A stretch of 61,128 nt of DNA, counting the filler, from Globobulimina sp. (Eukaryota): NCBI GenBank assembly GCA_003354225.1. It is 13 parts of 13 records of this genome, joined end to end, with 100 filler letters (N's around TTAATTAATTAA, not from the genome) between each part and the next. Parts side by side here need not be neighbours in the genome. Positions count along the whole stretch, not along the records: positions 1 to 4,614 come from PIVH01001060.1; 12 more parts are not named here. One strand, 5' to 3'. The notes beneath the pieces are model-generated. The model was not told the DNA's origin, did no database searches, and was given only the letters and a program-made list of their open reading frames with translations. Shown here in pieces: positions 1-32,569 of this stretch (the first letter of the stretch is position 1; every line of letters begins with the position of its first letter). The position numbers and the translations under genes are program-made.

Positions 1-1
1 C

Positions 2-136
2 GGACAAAAACAAAGAATCGCCATCGACAGAATGTTGATAAAAAAACCAAACATATTATTGCTGGATGAAGCGACTTCGAATCTGGACACTGTGTCGGAA
101 GCATTGGTGCAATCTGCGATTGATAGAACAATATGG
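2..136 (+). CDS. ABCB/MDR-type ABC transporter NBD fragment (5' partial), cut off at the transposon insertion
   Basis: Frame 2 reads [45 protein letters not shown]: end of the ABC signature, Walker B and D-loop. Confidence 0.85.
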
Positions 137-138
137 TA

Positions 139-209
139 TTACTATTTTCGAAACGGTGTGGTATTTTTTGTGTTGTGAATTGTTAATAATTGTTAAATTT
201 CTAAAATTC
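139..209 (+). repeat. Left terminal inverted repeat
   Basis: TTACTATTTTCGAAACGGTGTGGTATTTTTTGTGTTGTGAATTGTTAATAATTGTTAAATTTCTAAAATTC is the reverse complement of 3443-3513. Confidence 0.95.
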
Positions 210-284
210 AGCAAAACACTGTTTTTGCCCATTTTCCAGAAAATTGCAAAAATCCAGAAATTCTTAAAAACACAATTTTGCGCT

Positions 285-488
285 TAAAATACATAAAATA
301 CATAAAATACATTAAAATACATAAAATACATAAAATACATAAAATACATAAAATACATAAAATACATAAAATACATAAAAATACATAAAATACATAAAAT
401 ACATAAAATAATTAAAATACTTAAAATACATAAAATACATAAAATTCATAAAATCCATAAAATACATAAAATACATAAAATACATAAA
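285..488 (+). repeat. Subterminal 9-bp tandem array (TAAAATACA)n, about 22 units
   Basis: Directly visible tandem repeat. Confidence 0.95.
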
Positions 489-570
489 TCACTAATTTCT
501 ACAAAAACACAGTTTTTTTTAAAAATCACTAAATCTCTTTAAATCGTTATTTCTTCAAAAGTGTGGAATT

Positions 571-1880
571 ATGGCCGGAAATGTAGATGGTAAACAACAC
601 GAAGCACAGCATCCTCCACCACCAACAACAACGCAAATCATGATCCAAATTCAGATACCGAACGGTAAAAAGAGATCATTAGTATCAACATGGGATCTTT
701 CATATCGATACATTTAAAAATGAAATATTAGATCGGGTTTGTGAAGAACTTAATTTGTGTCACCAGCATTGCACTTTTAATGTTAAACTGAAATCAACTG
801 GCAAATTATCAATATGTGACCGATTCACATCTAACTTTGTCAAACCCGAAGTTGATGCGTTAATTGTAACATTGGGTATCAATCAATCTATCTATACATA
901 TGTTTTTGTTTTTGTTTGGTTTTAATAATAAAATACGTATTTAGATAATGAAGAATGCAAAGTTTGTGATATTGGTAAATTTCGAAAAGAGAAAAAACCA
1001 CCAAAACCACGGAAAAAAAGAACCAGCAAAAAAAATAAAAAACCACCAACAAAACCTGTCGCTGTTGCTGGGGCTGAAAGTGCAGAACCACCAAAAAAAC
1101 GGAGAAAGATAACAGAAATTTCCGACTATGAAGAAGAAGAAGATAATTCAACAAATGATGATGAATTCGATCCATCAAAAATGGGATCTGGATACAGTGC
1201 ACAACAATGGACCATTGCATTGAAATCAATTCAAGATAGCAATGAAAACAAGGGATGGGGACTTAACTCAAAAGGTATTGTCGAATTTACAAAATTATTG
1301 GTATGCAATCCATTGTCATTCTGTTTTATTTTTTCAATATAAATTATAAATAACACAGGCAAATGATAAGAATAAAGAATATGACATAAAATCGGTGCCA
1401 GCACATATATTGAAAAAACATGGAAAAAAAAAACCAAGAAACGTTTATAGAGCGCATACAAACCATTCAAATTATGGTGCTGGACAATATCAACAACCAC
1501 CACAATATCCGCCAGCATATCCACCACCATATTCGCATCAACCGCCACCACAATGTCATCCTCAACAGCATCGACAACGTCCACCACAAAATCCACCTCC
1601 ACATCAAAAACATCCGTATCCACAATATCAACCACAACAATATGCATATCCTCCACCGTATCCGTACTATCCACCACAACATTATCCACCGCCATATCCA
1701 TATCCTCCTCAACAACAACATCCAGCAGACCCAAATCAGGCAGACCCAAATCAACCAGAGTTACCAGACCCACTTCAATCAAATAATTCTGATAATGATG
1801 AGCCAGATGAGGATGAAATTAAAATTATTGCTCCTCCTCCACTGCCAATAATGAATGAATTCGACGGTGATTATGTTTAA
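571..1880 (+). CDS. Transposon cargo gene, about 371 aa, unknown function (basic NLS-like segment, acidic patch, Pro/Tyr/Gln-rich tail)
   Basis: Manual splice model 571-664, 732-875, 945-1300, 1359-1880 with GT-AG introns gives 1116 nt in frame; contains PPKKRRK and YPPPYPYYPP. Intron 1 is the least certain. Confidence 0.7.
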
Positions 1881-2029
1881 TTCAAAATGACATTATATTT
1901 AATTCTATAAATGCCTATAAATTGACATTTTTTTTAACTTTTGCGCTTTCTCATAATCAATTAACTCATTTTTACTTTCGCGCTGCTTTAAAATTAAGTT
2001 TCTAGTCAGGTTCAGAATATATGCAACCA

Positions 2030-3191
2030 TCAAAGCACTGAGGTCCGTTGGGACCGACCACAATCTACGACTGCTCCGCTTACGCGGAGCACCTTCGTAT
2101 AATTTGTAACATCAACATCTGTTAAAGTAGCCATTGCAGAATGCAATACGTATAATGGATCTCTTCTGGCAATTTGTTTATGTCTCCGAACATATAATTT
2201 TGCCGTATTAAAATCCAATTCAATGCAATTCAAATACGCTGAATACGGCGGCAAAAAACATAGCTCAATTCCATAATTGGCCATTAATCCTTTAAATGCC
2301 TGGCCACGATGATAACTCGCTCCATCCAAAACTAAAACTGAATTTGGTCCAGGAAATGGATTCATCATTGGTACCACCTCTTCCATTATAAAATTAACAA
2401 ATTGTGCTGCATTTGTATTAACTGAATATATAATTTATTATATAACATTTATGATTATAAAAACGTTATTTTATGATTATATTACATACCATCTATCACC
2501 TTCCATACCATCATACCAGCACTATTTCTCGCAGCCAGAATACCATACCGTGTACCTTTTGAAAATAAAAAACGAAATCGAGCTCTGGAACCTCTGTTAC
2601 ATATCAGAAACAACAACAACACAAGTTTAGTATATACAAAAGGAAATACCTCAAACTCCTTCCATAATTTCTGTTAGCTATTCTGTCGTGGCAATAACTC
2701 TCATCAACAAATACTAATTGGCTTTTTCTGATACTCTTTAATCTTAAATTTAAATGAAATAATCGAACATTTTTGTATTTAAAATGAAGTCCGATTTTCC
2801 ATATTTTCTTTCGCGTAATTTTTAATTTTTGTAACATTCTAACTATTTTCGCCATATGATAATATTCGCGACAATGTTTTGCCATTTCCCATTGTATTTC
2901 ATCTAAATAAAGAGTTGAATTTCTTTGAATAATTTGTTTCAATACCAATAAATGTCTGCGATTATATTCTATTGTTCTACCATGTGTTACGCGGAATTTT
3001 TCATATACAGATAACAAAGATCCAGTTTTGAACCAGCGATTGACGTATTTTCTTACACAATTGGGAGATAATAGCAATCTGTTTGCTGTTCGTTTGACGC
3101 TGTATGTTTTTGGATATCCCTTGATTGCGGTGTTAAAAGTAAAGACAATTATTATTTTATTCCGCTCACGTATGGACAGTGCAGATGGCAT
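2030..3191 (-). CDS. Tc1/IS630-family DD34E transposase, about 345 aa, 2 introns
   Basis: Exons 3191-2650, 2593-2490, 2421-2030 (1038 nt, in frame); FVDES...LVLDGASYH...FLPPYSAYLNCIE with 34 residues between D2 and E; HTH-like N-terminus. Confidence 0.92.
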
Positions 3192-3209
3192 AATTTGTAT
3201 CAAAATATG

Positions 3210-3396
3210 GGTTTTATGCGAATTTTATGATTTATGCGTTTTATGAGTTTTATGAGTTTTATGTATTTTATGCGTTTTCTGTATTTTATAGATTTTATGA
3301 GTTTTGTGAGTTTTATGGATTTTATGGATTTGATGCGTTTTATGAGTTTTATGGATTTTATGAGTTTTATGCATTTTATGGATTTTATGTATTTTA
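3210..3396 (-). repeat. Subterminal 9-bp tandem array, inverted relative to the left array, about 20 degenerate units
   Basis: Units TGTATTTTA / TGAGTTTTA / TGGATTTTA / TGCGTTTTA are reverse complements of TAAAATACA-like units. Confidence 0.93.
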
Positions 3397-3442
3397 ATAA
3401 AAATTCATTTTTTCGGAAAAAGCGCAAAATTGTGTTTTTTAA

Positions 3443-3513
3443 GAATTTTAGAAATTTAACAATTATTAACAATTCACAACACAAAAAATACCACACCGTT
3501 TCGAAAATAGTAA
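3443..3513 (-). repeat. Right terminal inverted repeat
   Basis: Reverse complement of 139-209. Confidence 0.95.
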
Positions 3514-3543
3514 TATGCCTTGAATCTTTACAAAGCAAAATAG

Positions 3544-4374
3544 CTAATCAAAGTGAACAAATTTTAAAGGTGTTCCAAAACCAGTTTCCTCTGTTTTTAA
3601 TATTGGCACAAGTTCATGAAAAATGTCTTTAGATAGTGCCAAATTTCCATTGTATTTATTTCTAAATCTAAGTTTGTTAACAGTCAATTTTTCGTAAATG
3701 AAATATCCACTCAGCCCCGAACGAGGATAATCAGGATCCTTTGATTTCAATTTAATGAGTTCGAATACTCTCTTATCACAAAAACAACGTATTGACCTCC
3801 ACAGTTGACCCAGTCCTCCTCCTTCACTGCAAATTGCATATATTTCATGATGATGATTCACCACAATATCTGTTTTATTGATTGATACGACTTCCTTCAA
3901 AGCCCCATCCTTTTTGTTTTGTATCATAGAACAAAAATGTCTATTTACACCTTTTTCCAATTTAATATATTTTTTTTTTGCTTTTTCTGCCAATTCATAA
4001 CTTTGAAATATGCCCAATAATATATCACATCCGGCATAGGGCGAAACTTCGTGATTTAAATAATATCCATAAAAAAGTTCAAATTGATAATATGACACAA
4101 TAATTTTTACCAAAACATTGGATAGCTCGCGACACCATTCATTAACAATTAATTCGACACTTTGTTCGTTGATCAGGAAATGCTGCATATTTTGTATTGC
4201 ATGATATCTTTTTTTGAATAATGTGAGAAAAAAAACATGAATATCTACAGTTAGTTCTTTACGATCAATGAAATCAATGGATTCATCAGGTTGGTCTGGA
4301 ATTGGTTCCTTTGCTTCTTTTTCATCGTGAAATTGCAGCTTTGTTTGGATTGTTTTTTGAAGACAGCTCCCCAT
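3544..4374 (-). CDS. Hypothetical eukaryotic protein (MGSC N-terminus, possible myristoylation/palmitoylation); may contain an in-frame intron
   Basis: 276-aa ORF with ATG start. Confidence 0.55.
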   Translation of the reverse strand: MGSCLQKTIQTKLQFHDEKEAKEPIPDQPDESIDFIDRKELTVDIHVFFLTLFKKRYHAIQNMQHFLINEQSVELIVNEWCRELSNVLVKIIVSYYQFELFYGYYLNHEVSPYAGCDILLGIFQSYELAEKAKKKYIKLEKGVNRHFCSMIQNKKDGALKEVVSINKTDIVVNHHHEIYAICSEGGGLGQLWRSIRCFCDKRVFELIKLKSKDPDYPRSGLSGYFIYEKLTVNKLRFRNKYNGNLALSKDIFHELVPILKTEETGFGTPLKFVHFD

Positions 4375-4614
4375 TGTTTCAGTTAAAGAATTAAATGAAT
4401 TTTACAGATACATTTTTTGCGTAAATTATAAAGCACAAAAACTAAAAGTCAAATTATATTAACCATATGCATCATAAATTATCTTTTTCATCTTTGTTAT
4501 TTTCTTCAAAATTACCAATTATTATTCGTGTTTCATTAAATCCAGGACAAATATCAACTATTTCTGTACCTTTATCAAAATAATTTGAATTAAATAATAA
4601 TGGTTTCCGCTGTA

Positions 4615-4737: not shown

Positions 4738-5499
4738 TTAGATAAATATTATCCTGTACCTTAATATATATTCCTCCTCATCCAAATCCTCTGCAAATCC
4801 ATTTTCCTTAACTTCCGCCATCAAAACATTGATAAAATCGCCTTTATGTTCTGTAATCTCATCGTTTGTGGGGTCATTCAATGCGGTTAATTCAAATTGT
4901 TTTTCCTCATTGGTTTCAAATGTAAATGGCGAGAAGTTTTGCGTTAATTTAATTAATCTCTTTCTCGGCGGATGGTTATACAATGTCATATGGCATAAAT
5001 CCTTCAAATCATTGCCACCAACTTCTAATCGCTTAAATGCTTTGCACTCCGCCAAATGTTTACATTCTTCCTTTGGGTGCTCCAAATCCTGTAAATGATA
5101 ATAAGCTTTTTGCGTGAAATTATACTCATATTTGCATTGTAAAAAATATTTGCACGAATCTGTGCATTTATTTTGTATCGCGTGCGGGCTATGGACTAAA
5201 GGACATCGACGATGCCAAAATGTAAAAATATTAATTATGTCAATTCTGAAGTGGTTGGCGTTGATATTGTCCATGTAATATCGTAAAGATTTGTTTTTTT
5301 TCATTATGACTCCATTATAATCTGCATTTGTTTCTGATACACTTTCTGAAAATTGCATTGCCATCAAATCAGGATTGAATGGTTTGTGTGCTTTCCTTGA
5401 AACATCATATAACACATCACCAACCCTTGCAATGTCAGAATAAGAAAAACAACTTTCTTTATAATGAACAGCTACTGAGGTGCTGTTATCGGAACCCAT
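4738..5499 (-). CDS. Hypothetical Cys/His-containing protein, probably continuing past the contig end through an intron
   Basis: 253-aa ORF with CKHLAECKAF...DLCHMTLYNHPPR. Confidence 0.55.
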   Translation of the reverse strand: MGSDNSTSVAVHYKESCFSYSDIARVGDVLYDVSRKAHKPFNPDLMAMQFSESVSETNADYNGVIMKKNKSLRYYMDNINANHFRIDIINIFTFWHRRCPLVHSPHAIQNKCTDSCKYFLQCKYEYNFTQKAYYHLQDLEHPKEECKHLAECKAFKRLEVGGNDLKDLCHMTLYNHPPRKRLIKLTQNFSPFTFETNEEKQFELTALNDPTNDEITEHKGDFINVLMAEVKENGFAEDLDEEEYILRYRIIFI

Positions 5500-5682
5500 T
5501 GTTTCTTTCCTACTCTCAATTATTTGTACATGTTAATCAACTCTGAAGGTGCTTGGTGGAATAACGGGTTTATAAATTTAAATGTGATAAATTAAGAAAA
5601 ATTACAAAACAACACTGTTTTTGATAATGTAAAATAATTCAAACATATATAAATCGAGTTACTCAAAAATCAAGTTATCATT

Positions 5683-7693
<2,011 letters not shown>

Positions 7694-21262: not shown

Positions 21263-21586
21263 ATGGTTTTGCCACAAGATGCAGATGATGATCTAATCAA
21301 AGAGGATATTGCAGAAGTCGGAACAACTAACGCAATAGTTCTGGAAAAAATCAAGAGAGCTAATGAGGATGCAACAGGAGAAATGAGATCACTATTTTTG
21401 AATAATGTAGAATTTACTGGAACACTTCCAGACTTTTATGTGCAAATTACATCAAAATATGCAACTGCATTATTTTGGGTAAAATCAAACGGTACTGATG
21501 CAGCACTAAACCAGGCAAAGGAAATTTATGCACAAGCTGAAAGAATCTTAGAGCAAAGATTCTTGCCAGTAGGGAGCAGAGTCTAA
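21263..21586 (+). CDS. Putative head-tail adaptor (Mu gp36-like helical protein)
   Basis: 107 aa; ANEDATGEMRS...LPDFYVQITSKYATALFW pattern; lies before the fiber gene. Confidence 0.45.
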   Translation: MVLPQDADDDLIKEDIAEVGTTNAIVLEKIKRANEDATGEMRSLFLNNVEFTGTLPDFYVQITSKYATALFWVKSNGTDAALNQAKEIYAQAERILEQRFLPVGSRV

Positions 21587-23463
21587 TGGCTGATGTAACT
21601 ATTCCAGACCTACCTCTGAATAATACACCAATTGGTACATCATTATTTGAAATTTCTACTGCTGGAATATCTCAATCAACCACACTTAATGATATTATTT
21701 TTGGACTTCAATCAACATCAGAAAAAGGTCAGCCAAACGGTTATGCTGGTTTGGATGGTTCAGCCAATTTACTATTAACAAATTTTCCAAGTGGCACATC
21801 TTTACAGGTCCTAAGAAGAAATGCAGGAAACACAGCTTTAGAATTTGCTGATCCATCTGGGGAATCAAATACATCATCTAATGTTGGTGGTGGTGATGGA
21901 TGGGCTTTGCCAAAAGTTGGAGCTGACTTACCATTCAGATCAATATTTGGACAGCTAAACAAAATTATCATAAACGCAAATCCAAATGATATCACACTAA
22001 CCATTGGAACAGAAATTGTAACTCTATCTGATTCTCAAACACTATCAAACAAATCAATCAATGCAGCAAGCAATATTATTACAAATCTTTCAAACAGTTC
22101 TTTACTTCCTGGTGCATTTTCATCAATCCTTGGTATAGGTATTCAGACACAAGCTTTGAACATGAACACCAACCAAATTAACAATGTTGCAAACGGAACA
22201 TCAGACTTTGATGCAGTAAACGTTCAGCAATTACAAGCAGCAATAGCTGGTGTAAACTGGAAAGACAATGCTAGAGTAGCTACTACTGGAAACATCACAC
22301 TATCTGGAAACCAAACAATTGACGGTGTAACTACCATTAATGGCGATAGAGTTTTGGTAAAAGACCAAACACTAGGACAAGAAAACGGTTTGTATAATTC
22401 TGATGCAGGAGCATGGACTAGAACCACAGATGCAGATACTGATGTAGAACTAGATAACATGGCAGTAGCCATTGAGGAGGGAACACTACAAGCTGGTACA
22501 ATCTGGCTATTAATTACAAACTTGCCAATTATAGTAGATACTACACCACTTGATTACATTCAGTTTGGTGGCTCCACCATAGTAGCTGGTGATGGTTTAA
22601 TCAGAACTGCAAACGTAATTGATGCAGTTGGTACTACAAACAGAATTCTAGTTAACGCAGATAATATTGATATTTCCCCTGCATATGTTGGACAAGCTTC
22701 AATCACTACTTTGGGAACTATTGGAACTGGTACATGGCAAGGTGATGTTATTGTAAAATCATTTTTGCCAAGTGAGGTTGTATTTACAGACCAGATTAAC
22801 ACCTATGGATTATTCAAACAAAACTTTACACCATCAGCTACTGATGCAGGAATTAACGTAGGACAACTGGCAGATCCTGATCCAACAGTTCCAATAAATG
22901 GAGATATCTATTACAACACAACTAACGGAAAGTTCAGAGGCTATGAAAACGGAGCATGGGTTGATTTAATCAGTACTTCACAGACACCATGGATATCTGA
23001 CATTGATGCAAGTGGCTTTGACTTGACAGATATTTCAAACCTAGAATTCCAAAATACAACAGGAGTTCCAGCAGGAACTATTCCCTCAATGTATAATGTC
23101 GCTGGTGGTTTGCGATTAAACACAGTTGATACTGCCGACATTGAACTTTTAGTAAATTCTGTAGCAGAATATACCTTTGGAGCTATTGGTGCTAATTTCC
23201 AAGGAAACAATCTAACTAACGTTGTACTCACAACTTTGGTCAATGTTAATAATTCATTAATTTGGGCTGATGGTGTAAGGCAGACATTCAATCCAGATGC
23301 AACAAACGCAGGAATTAACATGGGTTCACAGTCAAACCCTGATCCTACAAACGGTGTAAATGGTGATATCTACTATAACACAGATACCAATACCTTTAGA
23401 GGATTCCAAGGTGGAGCTTGGGCTGCATTAGGTGGTGGTGGTAGTGACACGCCATGGACTGAA
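21586..23463 (+). CDS. Virion fiber/structural protein (3' partial)
   Basis: G/T/N-rich; EKGQPNGYAGLD; WKDNARVATTGNITLSGNQTIDGV...GDRVLVKDQT...ENG motif typical of phage fibers. Confidence 0.8.
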
Positions 23464-23563
23464 NNNNNNNNNNNNNNNNNNNNNNNNNNNNNNNNNNNNN
23501 NNNNNNNTTAATTAATTAANNNNNNNNNNNNNNNNNNNNNNNNNNNNNNNNNNNNNNNNNNNN

Positions 23564-26500: not shown

Positions 26501-27354
26501 CCATCACGGGGTGGTATCGGAGGCGATTACTTGCGTCAATTTCTTGGAAACGTTTGGTGCTTTGCAAGTGGAGAAGAGTTCCCATCCGTTATTGAACGAA
26601 TTGGCGAGATTATGGGATGTTGCATTGGCTTTGAAACATGAATTAGCGGCACAATACGATGACGGTATAGATAAAGGCAAAAGTATGAATAAATCGGGCG
26701 GCAAAGCGGAGTATGACGGCGTTGGCAATTCGTTAAAACCGAAAATCAAAAACGATTTTAAGCAACGATCGGATGACGATATCCGTAGAGAATTAATTAA
26801 ATTTAAGCTTAAGATATTGCCCGATGCCCGCGAGGAGATGGAGGAAAAGCTAATGCATTTCAGATTGGACTCTGCCATTCGCGGTACTCGATGCTGTTGT
26901 GGTTCCCGTATGTTACGGATGGTGGCGAGGGATATTTATGGCAGTGGCTTATACTGCGATATATGTGGCACGCCGGTATGTGGCACATTGTTAGCGTATC
27001 ATTGTCCGTCTGACAAAGTTGCAGCCCATCCCAATGGCTATGACGTTTGCATGGATTGTGTCCATAAACAATGGTCGATTGACGAGAACAACAAAAGTAA
27101 ATCCAAATTATCACAAAAAGATGATCCCTATACGCATTTGGCACAGATAGCAGTGGAGAAAATCACATTATTATTCCGATTGTATCCGGCAAATAAAGAT
27201 TTTGGATCATCGGTGCGTACTTTGACCCGCATGACTTATGACGAACCGCCCTCTGCGCCAACAGTGCGATTCCAATCAAGTATAAAACATAAATACCAGA
27301 CGCAAGCAAATATATTCACGCCCTCCAAAGTGCCCCCCTCCAATTCTGATACCA
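23564..27354 (+). CDS. Large eukaryotic multidomain protein fragment: Kelch repeats, filamin-like Ig, UBA-like, RanBP2 zinc finger, Cys-rich module; possibly an E3 ligase
   Basis: GG...W Kelch repeats; DGSY...HPILGSPFKV; NMEQALNWLL; WTCQFCTFIN...CEMC. Confidence 0.8.
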
Positions 27355-28174
27355 CAGCACCTGCGCCACCGCAAAGTAAAGGTGCCCGGGGATTTCCTGG
27401 TCCAGTTTGCAATTAGCGTAAAGCGCTCGCGCCAGCGGTGGGGCTTCAAAAATTTCGATATCGTGAAACGCGGCAATCTCCCTGATCTTCAGGGCGATCA
27501 AATCCTTTCCCATCGCCAGTACCAGGGGCGCGGCCATGCTGTCGTGATGATATTTCAGCGCCACTGCGTAGTGCGTCGGGTTGGTAATAATGACGTCGGC
27601 CTCAGGCACCGCTTCCATCATCCGCCGTTGCGCCATTTCCTGTTGTAGCTGTCTGACCTTGGATTTGACTTCAGGCTTACCCTCGGTGTCTTTCATTTCA
27701 TCGCGCACTTCCTGCAGGGTCATCTTCAGTTTTTGCGAGTGATCCCAAAGCTGGAAGGGTACGTCGATTGCGGCTATCAGAACCAGGGTCGAAGACACCA
27801 CCAGGAAGCTGACACCCAGTAACCAGGCACCGTTTTCCAGCGCCAGTGCCAACGACTGCGACCCCAGCCCGAGAAACTCATCGGCCTTGCTCCACAGAAA
27901 TGTAACCGCGACTACAGATACCACCCGGAACTTGGCCACAGACTTAACCAATCACACCCGACCCTTCGACGAAAATATGCGCTTGAAACCACTCAACGGG
28001 TTTATGCGGTCCGCCTTGAGGGCCAGTGCATCGAAGCTGAATGACCAGCCACCGATTGCCAATGGTGTGAATATCGCGACCACCGTCATCAGAAACATGA
28101 ACGGGCCGATCGCAGTCAGGGCTTCGGAGAGTGCTAGCGCAAATTTTTCGAACAGACGGTGAACTTTTTGCAAG
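27355..28174 (-). CDS. flhB: Bacterial flagellar export protein FlhB fragment (in-frame TGA at 27952-27954; both ends truncated)
   Basis: LKMTLQEVRDEMKDTEGKPEVK, ADVIITNPTHYAVALKY, PPLARALY; GC-rich relative to the rest of the contig. Confidence 0.93.
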
Positions 28175-28274
28175 NNNNNNNNNNNNNNNNNNNNNNNNNN
28201 NNNNNNNNNNNNNNNNNNTTAATTAATTAANNNNNNNNNNNNNNNNNNNNNNNNNNNNNNNNNNNNNNNNNNNN

Positions 28275-30976
28275 GATGTAATACTTTGTTTTTTGATTAA
28301 CTGTGTACCAATGTTTCTTGTGGGTTTGTCCAAAAGCACATCTACATTTGTAGTCACTAACGGTTTAATCATCCTGTAACCATCAAGGCTAAGCTTCATA
28401 GAGTCTTGGTTGTTGAATCTGCTAGCCAGATCCGTATATCTTCCTTGACCATCAAAGGAATCTCTGGTGTAAATGCCACCAATTAAAAATTCTCTTGGAT
28501 CAAAGGCATCAGTAGTATCTGGTTCTGTTGCTGCAAGAAGCGTGCTGATTCCTGGCACACCTTTGAATGGCTTGCCTGGAAGCTTGCCTTGCTGAGAAAA
28601 TACATACTCTTTTCTTGGCTGTACTAAATCATCAATAATTCTAATGTTATCTCGCCTGTCTGCCATCCAAATACCAAAGGCATAATCACCCTCTGTAAGA
28701 TTTAGAATGTTTATAGCTGGATGTCTATTTATGATTAATTTCAGCCAAAACGCAAAAGCTTGAATCGGATAATAATCCTCAGATTGTGGACCAAACCAAC
28801 TCTCAACTCCAAAGTGATCTCTGAACATATTGTTAAAGTCAAAAGTTGGCAAAGTAATATCAGATCCTGCTGAACCACTCCCAAGAAATTTAGAATCGTC
28901 TTGTCCAGTTAATGGCCAAAGACTGTGAAAATTAAATCCAATGTAATAGCTGTTTATTTGTGCTAATGTAATTGGTGCAGTAGTGTTTCTTTGTTCTGAC
29001 TTTATGAAAACAGCAGAATTACTATCTATATCATCATCTAAAATTTCTTCGTTTCCCATGTCTATATTATGGCTAACAGAATCCCATGCTACTGAATGGG
29101 CACATTGTGGGATTGCATCAGTATTGAAAATACCAAATGCAGTTAATGCAATATCAATTAGGAAATAAGCACCCTTAACCCAAGTAGTAGCTCTTGGTGC
29201 TGCACCTCCAATAACAAATACACAAGCTCCACTATCATCAACACCTCTATCAGCCAAAGGTCCAAACGTATTTGGCACACAGGGATTTTTTATCCATTGA
29301 ACACCTTCTTCCCAATCAAAAACTTCTTGATCAGTTGCTAAGACTTTGGATTTGAAAACCACCCATTCTCCTACTCCATCAAGATCAGTATCAATCCATT
29401 CTACAATGTTACCACCTAATACTACACCATTTTTGTCAAGTATTCCAGGACCCCATGGACCACTAAGAGGAGCATTTCCTGTAGCAGGATCTATTGCTAG
29501 AACTCTATAAGCATCAGGAATATCTACACCAGCAATTTTATGAATAGATGGAATGTTTGTAGGATTGTTCGTAACTATTCTTACGTGCGTACGTGGGTGA
29601 TTTGCATCATCAATTATTACATTGGGATCAATCATTTTCACTTTTCCCTTGTTGTCATCTAATACGCCTCCATCTGCATATTTCGAAGCTGCAAGTGCAT
29701 TTACCCAAGCTTGAGCATTTGCTTTGGTTAAAGGAGAATAGTCAACTGCTGGAGCATAAAATATCCTAGTCCAAAAGTCGCTGTCTGGTGGACCATTATC
29801 AGGTGAAGCATCTGACACATGAGCCTGAATACATTTCCATGAAATGTTTAATCTTCTAACCAAATCATTTACAGAATAGGCAATAGATCCAGCATTCCAT
29901 ATTGCAGGCTTTACGAATAATCTTTGAATCCAAAAGCCAGCATTAGGTGGTTGATTTGCTCCACTAGAAAGATGATCTGTAATACATTCATAGGTTAAAT
30001 TGTTCTCTCTTACAAGATTGCCAAAAAAGTAATTCTGACCACTAGCCCAATCCTTTGCACTATCAAAAACATTTTTGGCACCATGGTACTGTGCCCAATC
30101 AACAGGATAACTCCCTGAATTTTTATCAGCTATAAGTTGCAAGTTCGTAGCAAGTTCTGGATCTTCGTCTGAATCAGTGGATAATACGTTGGTTGGTGGT
30201 GTATTGCCACTAAGTAAAGGCTGGTGGATTAATGTAACGTTTGGAATATTTGTTAAATTGCCTCCACCATCATCCTGAAAACCTTGAGGGATTGCCTGGA
30301 CTTGAACAGTGTTTAGATCAACATCGCTTGGTGCATCATGGTTATATTTTGATTTGAATCGAATAAAGACAGCCTCAAAACTTCCTCCTCCCTCTATTGG
30401 CTGCTGCTCAATTTCTGAAATTTCATTAAATGCAGTTTGTAATTTTACAGCTTCAAAGATGTAATTGTTTGAAGTGTCCTGATCTAAGAAATTTCCAACC
30501 TTTCTAACTGTGTCCTGAGCTGGCACTTCAATAACTGGATCTAATGATCCTGTATTCTGTGGAACATTTAGTTGATCTACAATTTTATTAACTGCATCAA
30601 AGCCCGATGTTCTTCTGGCAACTAACCCGATAGTTCTTTTCCATAAATTATCTGATTGATGAGGACAAAACAAAGTAAGCTGTTTATTTTTGCCTGGCTT
30701 CCTAGAACGTTTTATTGTCTTAACATGGAAAACATCCTCAATTATGTTACCTCTTGCATCTGTTATCCTAACGTAAATTTTATCGAATTTTACAATAATT
30801 GGTGCTACTGTCATGTACTTGCCATAAGCAGAGTTTAAAGTAATTTTACAGCTTTGTGGCAAGCCATCTGTATATTCTATTGTACTCCAAGATCCAGACA
30901 AATCATTATCAGCTTCCCCCTCTCTTTTTAGAATTACAGTTACTTCTGTGTAAGGAGTGAAATTTGGAGTACTCAA
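28275..30976 (-). CDS. Tail hub/tip-like protein with two CBM5/12 (chitin-binding type 3)-like repeats (3' partial)
   Basis: WASGQNYFFGNLVRENNLTYECITDH and WNAGSIAYSVNDLVRRLNISWKCIQAH. Confidence 0.65.
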
Positions 30977-31509
30977 ATATCAAGGCCTCTACTTCTTCTA
31001 AAGGTAAGTGTTATCTCTACTCTGTTTCTATTGTAATCATTTACCTTATCAAAATTCTCAAAAATCATCCCAATTGCAGTATCTCCAGTTCCAATTGGTG
31101 TCAAGTCGTTATCTGTATCTGATGAATCAATAAAACCAAATCTTCCAGCTTCCCAAACTCCAAGAATTGCTTGTGCTTCTTCTTTCCATGTTCTAAGTTT
31201 TGCAATTATTGCATTATTTCCATCATCTGCATTTCCTCTCATATTAGAAATGAATCCTTTAAGCTGGTAAGTTCCCTCAACAATTCCTAAAGGTTGAACA
31301 TTACCATCTGGCTTTTCTGCTGCTTGATTGTTTCCAATTCCCTCTGGATCTCCTCTTGTCAGTGTTAGAAGATATGCACCCTCTTTCCCAGTATCTTTAA
31401 AATCTCCTGCTGCTGGATCATTGAATAAAATAAAATCAGTAGTTGGTGTATCAGGTGCAGCAGTTAATCTGTAAATTCTAAAGGATTTTGCAACTAAACT
31501 AGCACCCAT
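30973..31509 (-). CDS. Putative distal-tail-like virion protein
   Basis: 178 aa, beta-rich; assigned from gene position. Confidence 0.4.
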   Translation of the reverse strand: MGASLVAKSFRIYRLTAAPDTPTTDFILFNDPAAGDFKDTGKEGAYLLTLTRGDPEGIGNNQAAEKPDGNVQPLGIVEGTYQLKGFISNMRGNADDGNNAIIAKLRTWKEEAQAILGVWEAGRFGFIDSSDTDNDLTPIGTGDTAIGMIFENFDKVNDYNRNRVEITLTFRRSRGLDI

Positions 31510-32061
31510 TTAATCAACTCCTTGTGTGTTTGTTATCTGATATTCATTTTCTATACGCTGCTGGTTTTCATTAAATTCTCTAAATGTGTTATACGCATCA
31601 CGAGGTTCTGCACTTCCAGCTTGAGTTGTAATGATAGTTTGTGTAAGGCCAGCTTGTATTCTTGCAGTTTCTTCTTTTGCCCTGAACTTGTTTATCCTAT
31701 CATCAACGTTATCAACAAACTCTGCTTGGAAATTATTTACCTTTTGTACAAATGCTGCAATTACACCAGTGATTAAAAGAGCTGTACCAATGAATGGGAT
31801 TAGCTTTGTTACTTGACCTTGAACAAAACCTAATGGGTTTGAACCAACACTGACAAGATTTGAGAATGTTTCCCTACCAAATGCTTTTTTCAGTCCTTCC
31901 TCTTTCTGAGTTTTACTGGCTGTTTGTTGTCCAGGTATTGGTGCTCTTGCTCCAGATTCCTCTAAAGATTCAATTATGTTACCTACCTGATCATCAATAC
32001 GCCTTAGAGATTCAGGTGTAAGCTTTGTCAAGTCAATTTCTAAAACTTTGTCTACTGCCAT
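31510..32061 (-). CDS. Helical protein with a central hydrophobic segment; candidate short tape measure
   Basis: 183 aa; KLIPFIGTALLITGVIAAFV; gene position. Confidence 0.4.
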   Translation of the reverse strand: MAVDKVLEIDLTKLTPESLRRIDDQVGNIIESLEESGARAPIPGQQTASKTQKEEGLKKAFGRETFSNLVSVGSNPLGFVQGQVTKLIPFIGTALLITGVIAAFVQKVNNFQAEFVDNVDDRINKFRAKEETARIQAGLTQTIITTQAGSAEPRDAYNTFREFNENQQRIENEYQITNTQGVD

Positions 32062-32062
32062 G

Positions 32063-32569
32063 TTATACTCCCAAAATCTTTGTAGCTTCTTCTGCTAGAT
32101 TCTCTCCATACATAGATACAGCACTATTCTCATTTTCTTTGATTGTCTTTTCAATTATCAATAATCTCTCAATACCTGAAACCTCATGGCCTTTTGAATA
32201 TGCAATAGATCCATCTGGTGCCTCCCATCTCAAAACTCCACCTTTCTTTTTTGGCCTGATAATATGGTCTATTGTTCCCTCCTCCCTAGCATTAGATACA
32301 TCAAATCCAGTATCTGATTCATAGTCTGAAATGTAATGGATTTGGGCTTTGCCTGATGATACAAGTATAGGACCTACAAAAGTTGCATCAATAATTTTAT
32401 CAGAGAAATCATTTACCCTCATTTTGGTTTTTATCTCATCTAATACATCATCATTGGCAAAATTCGTTAGTGCCTTTTTCTGAATGAAATCAAAAGAAGC
32501 TTCAAGTGTTTTCAATTTGTTTCTAAAACTTTTCAGTTCAGCCAAATTTCTTATGACCAAACGTGCCAT
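32063..32569 (-). CDS. HK97 gp10-like tail-completion/neck protein
   Basis: AREEGTIDHIIRPKKKGGVLRW...KGHEVSG. Confidence 0.55.
   Translation of the reverse strand: MARLVIRNLAELKSFRNKLKTLEASFDFIQKKALTNFANDDVLDEIKTKMRVNDFSDKIIDATFVGPILVSSGKAQIHYISDYESDTGFDVSNAREEGTIDHIIRPKKKGGVLRWEAPDGSIAYSKGHEVSGIERLLIIEKTIKENENSAVSMYGENLAEEATKILGV

Follow-up and report, generated by a model that had tools for sequence, protein, structure and literature searches.

Several transposons with DDE transposases are two-gene systems in which a non-catalytic helper accompanies the transposase: mudrA and mudrB in MuDR, VANC beside the VANDAL transposase, and the Myb protein of PIF/Harbinger. In MuDR, the two genes are convergent and read inward from the ends. 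All three belong to other superfamilies than the element described here and make other target-site duplications. In the IS630/Tc1/mariner (ITm) group, multi-gene elements in print include TBE and Tec (PMC7325037, PMC4724952) and Dici (PMC13469147). The initial annotation of our locus had limited multi-gene elements to ciliates and PIF/Harbinger, a limit lifted by Dici, a yeast ITm element with three coding sequences (CDSs) (PMC13469147). Our subject is a two-gene element, 3375 bp long with its terminal inverted repeats (TIRs), in DNA of Globobulimina sp. (assembly GCA_003354225.1). It lies in what we call the window, the whole stretch of 61,128 nt that was analysed, whose positions 1–4614 are a single contig (C1060). 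One gene encodes a transposase, and the other, the open reading frame (ORF) called ORF2, converges on it. We favour as the probable explanation an autonomous-type, IS630-like ITm element of a rhizarian, with an accessory gene of its own that was inherited and has much diverged. ORF2 is most likely this inherited accessory gene and not a captured host gene.

Ends, transposase and host of the element

The element is made up of the following features, given by position in the window and strand.

137–138, no strand: left TA target-site duplication, adjoining the TIR; TA is also found at other TIR ends
139–209, plus: left TIR, 71 bp, starting TTAC
284–488, plus: left subterminal array of a 9-bp unit (repeat families D1/D3; 20 motif matches)
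571–1880, plus: ORF2, accessory gene of 371 amino acids (aa), predicted exons 571–664, 732–875, 945–1300 and 1359–1880
643–790, plus: putative PB1/ubiquitin-like region of ORF2, best profile blocks at 643 and 722
665–731, plus: doubtful intron 1 of ORF2, or coding sequence with a frameshift (GTAA donor, purine 0.58)
876–944, plus: intron 2 of ORF2, GTAT..AG, T-rich, with in-frame stops
1301–1358, plus: intron 3 of ORF2, phase 0, at the conserved fungal intron site if F aligns with the family's W
1484–1740, plus: P/Y/Q-rich low-complexity tract of ORF2, from sequence composition
2030–3191, minus: DD34E transposase, 345 aa, predicted exons 3191–2650, 2593–2490 and 2421–2030
2057–2100, minus: GC-rich hairpin with a GTAA loop at the transposase 3' end (fold of 1900–2110, z −2.87)
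3195–3398, minus: right subterminal array, the same 9-bp unit as on the left but more degenerate (D2 plus inverted pairs; 16 motif matches)
3443–3513, minus: right TIR, 71 bp, exact inverted copy of the left TIR
3514–3515, no strand: right TA target-site duplication, adjoining the TIR

The perfect 71-bp TIRs with TA flanks reported in the initial annotation were confirmed: 73 bases match from 137 and 3515, that is TA plus 71, and weaker similarity reaches inward to 246 and 3406. The arrays of the 9-bp unit inside both TIRs are an addition to that annotation, and may be sites for transposase binding or promoters. The same TIR is present on many other contigs, mostly close to contig ends. Since TA precedes 22 of 23 distinct TIR ends at the loci fetched elsewhere in the assembly, and since two complete short elements carry the TIR (475 bp in C22649, L007 212–686; about 196 bp in C35983, L036 292–487), the TIR family has transposed repeatedly into TA and includes non-autonomous members resembling miniature inverted-repeat transposable elements (MITEs). 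The recent activity claimed earlier is in line with this mobility. A further locus (L032, C42502, 339–601) is an internally deleted derivative of an element of the L005 type.

The minus-strand gene had been described as an open transposase with two introns, and this model stands. The frame is open over all 345 aa, the triad D163, D248, E283 leaves 34 residues between D and E, and the protein matches Pfam DDE_3 (PF13358) with E=1e-14, above the cut-off. Both intron sites recur in the paralogs L004 and L005, and intron 1 alone in L009; paralogs with the same intron sites are about 50–60% identical to the window transposase. The relative P0001 (337 aa) is collinear with it across both junctions, with 59% identity over exon 3. 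Nonsynonymous divergence (dN) from three paralogs is 0.28–0.45; synonymous divergence (dS) is 0.88–2.4 in five comparisons and saturated in one, and dN is below dS. For exon 1, where an N-terminal helix-turn-helix (HTH) region would be expected, we found no Pfam match and a weak IS481 match (E=4e-4), while HTH_23 matches a more distant paralog in C277. A search of viral contigs and GTDB genomes with the exon-3 alignment gave no confirmed relative. Beside these results, a 57-bp minisatellite was seen 3' of an L009-type transposase stop (L021, C26768, 330–620).

Fungal relatives pass the NCBIfam IS630 cut-off (NF033545, 100 bits; P0002 with 127 and P0003 with 131, P0001 falling below it with 78), and the transposase therefore appears closer to IS630 than to Tc1 or mariner proper. 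P0001 gave no sequence match in the PDB at E≤1, which suggests a wide distance from the transposases of Tc3, Mos1 and Sleeping Beauty, whose solved structures are in that database. The Tc1/mariner label given earlier thus holds for the ITm group as a whole (DDE_3, DD34E, TA), but "IS630-like" is the better name within it.

The host is a rhizarian, because the monomers in its polyubiquitin genes are joined with one additional Ala and insertions of 1–2 residues at this junction are Rhizaria-specific (PMC3014934). Ubiquitin-domain matches number at least 154 across the assembly, with three introns per monomer in the polyubiquitin genes. At 5105–6550 (minus) of L048 (C277), ubiquitin-like domains lie on both sides of a stretch (CFVAGT ... 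HNFFAN..LVHN) that we take to be Hint/intein-like. The assembly comprises 70 Mb in 48,370 contigs, among them bacterial, virus-like and chimeric-looking ones. Three window parts look non-eukaryotic (21541–23511, 28223–32094 and 27316–27951), with virion/tail-like ORFs and an FlhB-like ORF, labelled by eye; the assembly is therefore mixed. Because of the bacterial or virus-like contigs and the chimeric pieces, the source looks like amplified single-cell DNA.

In such an assembly, split into so many contigs, the element could be a chimera of assembly or whole-genome amplification that unites two unrelated pieces between repeated TIRs. Four TIR contigs look chimeric (L010, L011, L013, L017), no contig of run X1 covers the whole stretch, and the flanks do not form one gene: on the left, an ABC-transporter exon ends at a GTATGC-like donor broken by the TA, and on the right the stop of an unrelated minus-strand ORF lies at 3544, with no ABC continuation, which also counts against the explanation that we favour. 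We nevertheless regard a chimera as very improbable. The two ends of this TIR subtype are identical in all 71 bp, and other subtypes differ from it beyond about 33 bp; the 9-bp arrays at the two ends match, one contig bridges both genes, and the same layout exists in unrelated fungal elements. The bridging contig (1641–2173), with ORF2 exon 4 and transposase exon 3, comes from a second assembly of the reads, which probably represents the source data and is not independent. The depth of run X1 is 4.7–7 over ORF2 and 11.9 over the transposase, values that are not a copy number; runs X2 and X3 gave no match, which says nothing about expression.

A second gene beside fungal transposases of the clade

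A metagenome search with the catalytic exon of the transposase returned 39 loci, of which 22 extend 800 bp or more downstream of the match and were taken as informative. A conserved second gene is present in 16 of these 22, convergent in 10 and on the same strand in 6, and the same 16 loci were recovered by profiles built from database proteins only. The window transposase is related to those of the fungal two-gene elements (motifs MNPFPGPNS and Y-L/F-NPIE), with 30–70% identity on the best segments. Judged from these sequences, the two-gene layout is a trait of the wider transposase clade. Inverted repeats were examined in 8 of the 39 loci. Arms of 76 nt enclose both genes in L087, perfect arms of 580 nt lie at the contig ends of L073 (9–588 and 3716–4295), and the 40-nt arms of L096 are weak; in L075, an element of 2 kb, 81-nt arms enclose just a short acidic convergent frame beside the transposase. 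Because of the L073 arms, transposase and convergent partner start with identical 5' sequence; these arms represent either a long TIR or an assembly artefact. As a separate observation, the 81-bp TIR of L075 (888–968) holds, inside and reversed, 14 bases identical to the start of the window TIR.

A search at E≤0.001 gave 335 representatives of the partner family, and all 10 members looked up are Agaricomycete hypothetical proteins. None of 12 members tested passes a Pfam cut-off, and neither Myb/SANT nor another known helper domain was found in them. The Atlas lists unnamed Basidiomycota clusters and, at 0.78, a cluster of SAM-domain proteins, 18% of which carry SAM_1. The dN/dS ratio of the PB1-like exon is 0.07–0.12 in three unsaturated pairs, three further pairs being saturated, and the family is under purifying selection in the fungal relatives. 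The predicted structure of one member, P0047, has three ordered parts. Residues 113–224 match PB1 domains (Z 10.2, rmsd 2.1, 82 aligned), the middle part would be a Cys/His module that includes a Trp helix, and residues 383–489 match SAM domains (Z 8.9, rmsd 6.7, 91 aligned). Besides the PB1-like domain, the Cys/His module and the SAM-like domain, the fungal partner would, according to this model, have a P/Y/Q tract; no catalytic domain was seen in it. In most spliced members, though not in L061, L062 and L086, a phase-0 intron lies four residues past the Trp.

The literature searched, which was covered incompletely and with supplements excluded, held no PB1/Cys-His/SAM transposon partner and no two-gene fungal IS630-like family. 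Such a partner is likewise not described in the available text of PMC11544213, which treats IS630/Tc1 groups across kingdoms, or of bioRxiv 2025.06.16.659975. On foraminiferan transposases the same literature held nothing relevant, and the main text of a recent rhizarian genome paper does not mention Tc1, mariner or IS630.

Possible relationship of ORF2 to the fungal partner and state of this copy

ORF2 is convergent with the transposase, downstream of it and inside the element, as in 10 of the 16 fungal-type loci, and it spans the space between the subterminal array and the transposase stop as the fungal partners do. In the three-intron model proposed in the initial annotation, its frame is open over 371 aa, but intron 1 is doubtful. 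The K-rich stretch resembling a nuclear localisation signal (NLS) and the P/Y/Q tail noted there are both present in the translation. We scored four blocks of the partner family on ORF2. At the expected places, each block ranks in the top 0.05–0.75% of control windows, which is not significant for a single block among about 800 windows. The best ordered chain places the four blocks at 643, 722, 1259 and 1380 with a score of 20.1, and block 3 ends, unforced, exactly at the donor of intron 3. When a GT was required after block 3, this score was reached in 1 of 321 genome stretches and in none of 150 shuffles (P about 0.003). In the putative PB1/ubiquitin-like region, the frame of position 571 would encode the first strands, and that of 683 the helix and the strand after it. 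On balance, we lean towards homology between ORF2 and the fungal partner family. If so, what ORF2 retains would be the PB1-like part along with the helix and low-complexity tracts, the Cys/His ligands and the SAM tail being absent.

Several results weigh against this reading. The blocks were chosen post hoc, after a likeness had been noticed by eye, and without the anchor the chain score was reached in 11 of 321 stretches and 9 of 150 shuffles (P 0.03–0.06). HMMER profiles of both partner-family domains did not detect ORF2, and HHalign of the family against ORF2 gave a probability of 0.12%. ORF2 lacks C283, H288, C292 and W310 (reference numbering), the best-conserved features of the family, as well as the SAM tail, and the partner profiles give no match on the loci derived from the window. 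No family member was detected in 6 of the 22 informative relatives (L065, L075, L079, L080, L085, L099) or beside any other transposase of this genome, and L005 has no second gene in the roughly 300 bp downstream of its transposase. The two-component family suggested in the initial annotation is therefore seen among the relatives of the clade, but not as a second full copy with ORF2 in this fragmented assembly, where ORF2 is single-copy. Finally, the rhizarian transposases form their own group (98) in a quick tree of 46 rows, in which loci with fewer than 110 recovered residues were omitted and Tc1 reference transposases were not included. The backbone that joins this group to the fungal lines lacks resolution; the group does not fall inside the fungal rows that carry the accessory gene. 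The tree would fit an old shared ancestry and is no proof of it.

The missing profile match, ligands and SAM tail are what one would expect if ORF2 belonged to the element family but was unrelated to the fungal partner, having been gained independently as in TBE, Tec and Dici. The convergent last exon behind the L004 transposase, 57 P/Q/N/Y-rich codons after an AG, would suit such a history, as it resembles ORF2 in composition only and has no sequence in common with it; so would the unrelated neighbours in other multi-ORF DDE loci of this genome (C1930, C277). The presence of a convergent exon at this place in a paralog, on the other hand, also speaks for the explanation that we favour. We consider an independent gain unlikely, given the four blocks in order, the shared position of the phase-0 intron and the convergent layout common to most fungal cases.

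More distant sources of ORF2 were also considered. Pfam gave weak matches under the cut-off and no kinase, zinc finger, Myb/SANT or other known helper domain. Searches of the same genome with exons 2 and 3 of ORF2 and with the first part of exon 4 gave no homolog, and P0047 had no match there either. Exon 3 had no homolog in the ESM Atlas, and its residues 70–119 had none among 5.8 billion proteins, where five candidates offered weak evidence. A plain ubiquitin was rejected, as a profile of 16 ubiquitin-like sequences from this genome gave no match. If this one copy of the element had captured part of a host gene (Pack-type cargo), now decaying, that would account for the single copy, for a possible frameshift and for the end of C3731, where 108 bases are identical to ORF2, the sole other piece in the assembly. 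This origin seems to us improbable. No parent gene, or ordinary host paralog, was found at the DNA or protein level in the 70 Mb of this incomplete assembly, and ORF2 fills the space from the array to the transposase stop just as the fungal partners do. Moreover, the C3731 piece is probably an amplification chimera, because there is a local duplication at the junction and no matching loose end in run X1.

For an inherited accessory gene, as we favour, one must also consider the state of this particular copy, which the initial annotation had called intact. That description is doubtful: the donor of ORF2 intron 1 is GTAA, the transposase lacks a C-terminal motif, and it differs from close relatives in two other motifs. 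The copy probably inserted recently, and it may be partly broken or defective. The transposase C-terminus is without the M-x-x-x-GYF motif that is present in 4 of 4 close relatives aligned, and the window protein reads DGASYH and LNCIE where these have DNASYH and LNPIE. The hairpin is located where the motif is lost. A second contig of run X1, probably the source data, has 2057–2093 (37 bases) in common and then diverges, and the diverging sequence was not found in the assembly. The hairpin region could be an in-frame insertion or a third intron. The candidate intron (2083–2038, 46 nt) has a GC content of 0.59, against 0.13–0.29 in the other introns, and its removal would not restore the motif. 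Other readings of the hairpin, as a non-coding RNA, a Helitron end or a repeat, were rejected: no Rfam match exceeded the threshold, and the sequence occurs just once in the assembly.

GTAT is the donor in the element's other four introns, and polyubiquitin genes on four contigs that overlap in part gave 18 donors, 12 GTAT and 6 GTGT, with no GTAA. The alignment with the fungal family enters intron 1 of ORF2 in two frames. From the first strand to the helix, 50 of 53 rows of this family have 18–19 residues; the window has 64 nt there, and this interval would be almost nil if 665–731 were spliced. Taken by itself, the block inside intron 1 is weak (P=0.065). No indel appears at 665–731 in a second assembly, which probably represents the same data. 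From these sequences, 665–731 would be either a frameshifted exon or an atypical intron. If the homology with the fungal family holds, the PB1-like domain crosses this "intron" in two frames, and the partner might be made through programmed frameshifting rather than be broken.

Proposed mechanism and comparison with known systems

In the scenario that we propose, each end of the element would drive one inward-reading gene. The transposase would bind the TIRs, perhaps aided by the 9-bp arrays, excise the element and insert it at TA. Binding, excision and TA insertion are the standard chemistry of the ITm family. The same transposase would also mobilise the short non-autonomous elements with this TIR. 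ORF2 would be a non-catalytic helper in the nucleus that assembles with itself and protects the element or regulates it, for instance by countering silencing or adjusting the transposase. Proteins are linked, often into polymers, through PB1 and SAM domains, and for this reason we speculate that the partner is a scaffold of this type; among the jobs it might have, this one is the likeliest, though with well under an even chance. An old, eukaryote-wide two-gene IS630-like family, with members in Fungi and Rhizaria and a partner that assembles itself into a PB1(-SAM) scaffold to protect the element or regulate it, is a plausible extension to which we give somewhat less than an even chance.

ITm elements are the textbook one-gene transposons, and a selected partner beside one clade would show dependence on a second factor. 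If the proposal is true, this partner has been kept across several fungal groups and perhaps in Rhizaria, and hundreds of unannotated fungal "hypothetical proteins" are transposon helper proteins. With such a system one could test directly how simple DNA transposons withstand silencing or control their own activity. A supergroup that has been little studied also gains a characterised DNA-transposon family, MITEs included. What this single copy is worth is limited by the weak link between ORF2 and the family, and by gene models predicted from DNA alone.

Two other loci of this genome have transposases with several neighbouring ORFs. In L033 (C1930, 2–3885), a spliced, pogo-like DDD transposase (747–2239) stands between the end of an upstream K/P/Q/acidic ORF (2–631) and a downstream Cys/His-finger-like ORF (3145–3885). 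A 10-bp repeat there resembles the subterminal unit of the window, and the locus, whose ends were not seen, is perhaps another multi-gene element. In L048 (C277, 1648–4922), a distant DD34E-type transposase follows three upstream ORFs on the same strand, one of which ends in an NLS-like sequence; a TIR-like sequence lies at 4939, and the partner family gave no match.

By its sequence, the element appears to belong to ITm as defined and to differ in structure from Tc1 proper, TBE, Tec and Dici as each is defined. With the IS630 family and Tc1 it shares DD34E, the TA target and the DDE_3 domain. Tc1, however, typically has a single ORF in about 1.3 kb, with TIRs of about 30 bp (PMC7325037), against 3375 bp, two genes and 71-bp TIRs here. 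Tec of Euplotes resembles the element in its DD34E transposase and has several ORFs, one of them on the opposite strand, but it has TIRs of about 700 bp and a site-specific recombinase ORF (PMC7325037), which have no counterpart in our element.

Dici1 and Dici2 of Diutina catenulata (PMC13469147) are, like our element, ITm transposons outside the ciliates, with DD34E, a TA duplication, a DDE_3-type transposase and extra CDSs of unclear role in about 4 kb. Among the CDSs of Dici, CDS1 is an orphan of 143–146 aa and CDS3 a transposase relic with a homeodomain; the transposase has 473–477 aa and the TIRs, of 8 or 33 bp, start with CAGT. Our element has instead a spliced transposase of 345 aa, 71-bp TIRs starting TTAC and one convergent, spliced partner. 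Compared by description, the criteria for Dici (432–478 aa, CAGT/CACTA TIRs, KKRK in the catalytic core) are absent from it.

TBE of Oxytricha differs in its telomere-like TIR tips and its three ORFs, which include a zinc finger and a kinase, none of these being present in our element. Like our element, it is a DD34E ITm transposon, with TIRs of about 80 bp and internal short tandem repeats, and its extra ORFs, one of them in reverse orientation, are under purifying selection (PMC4724952, PMC7325037).

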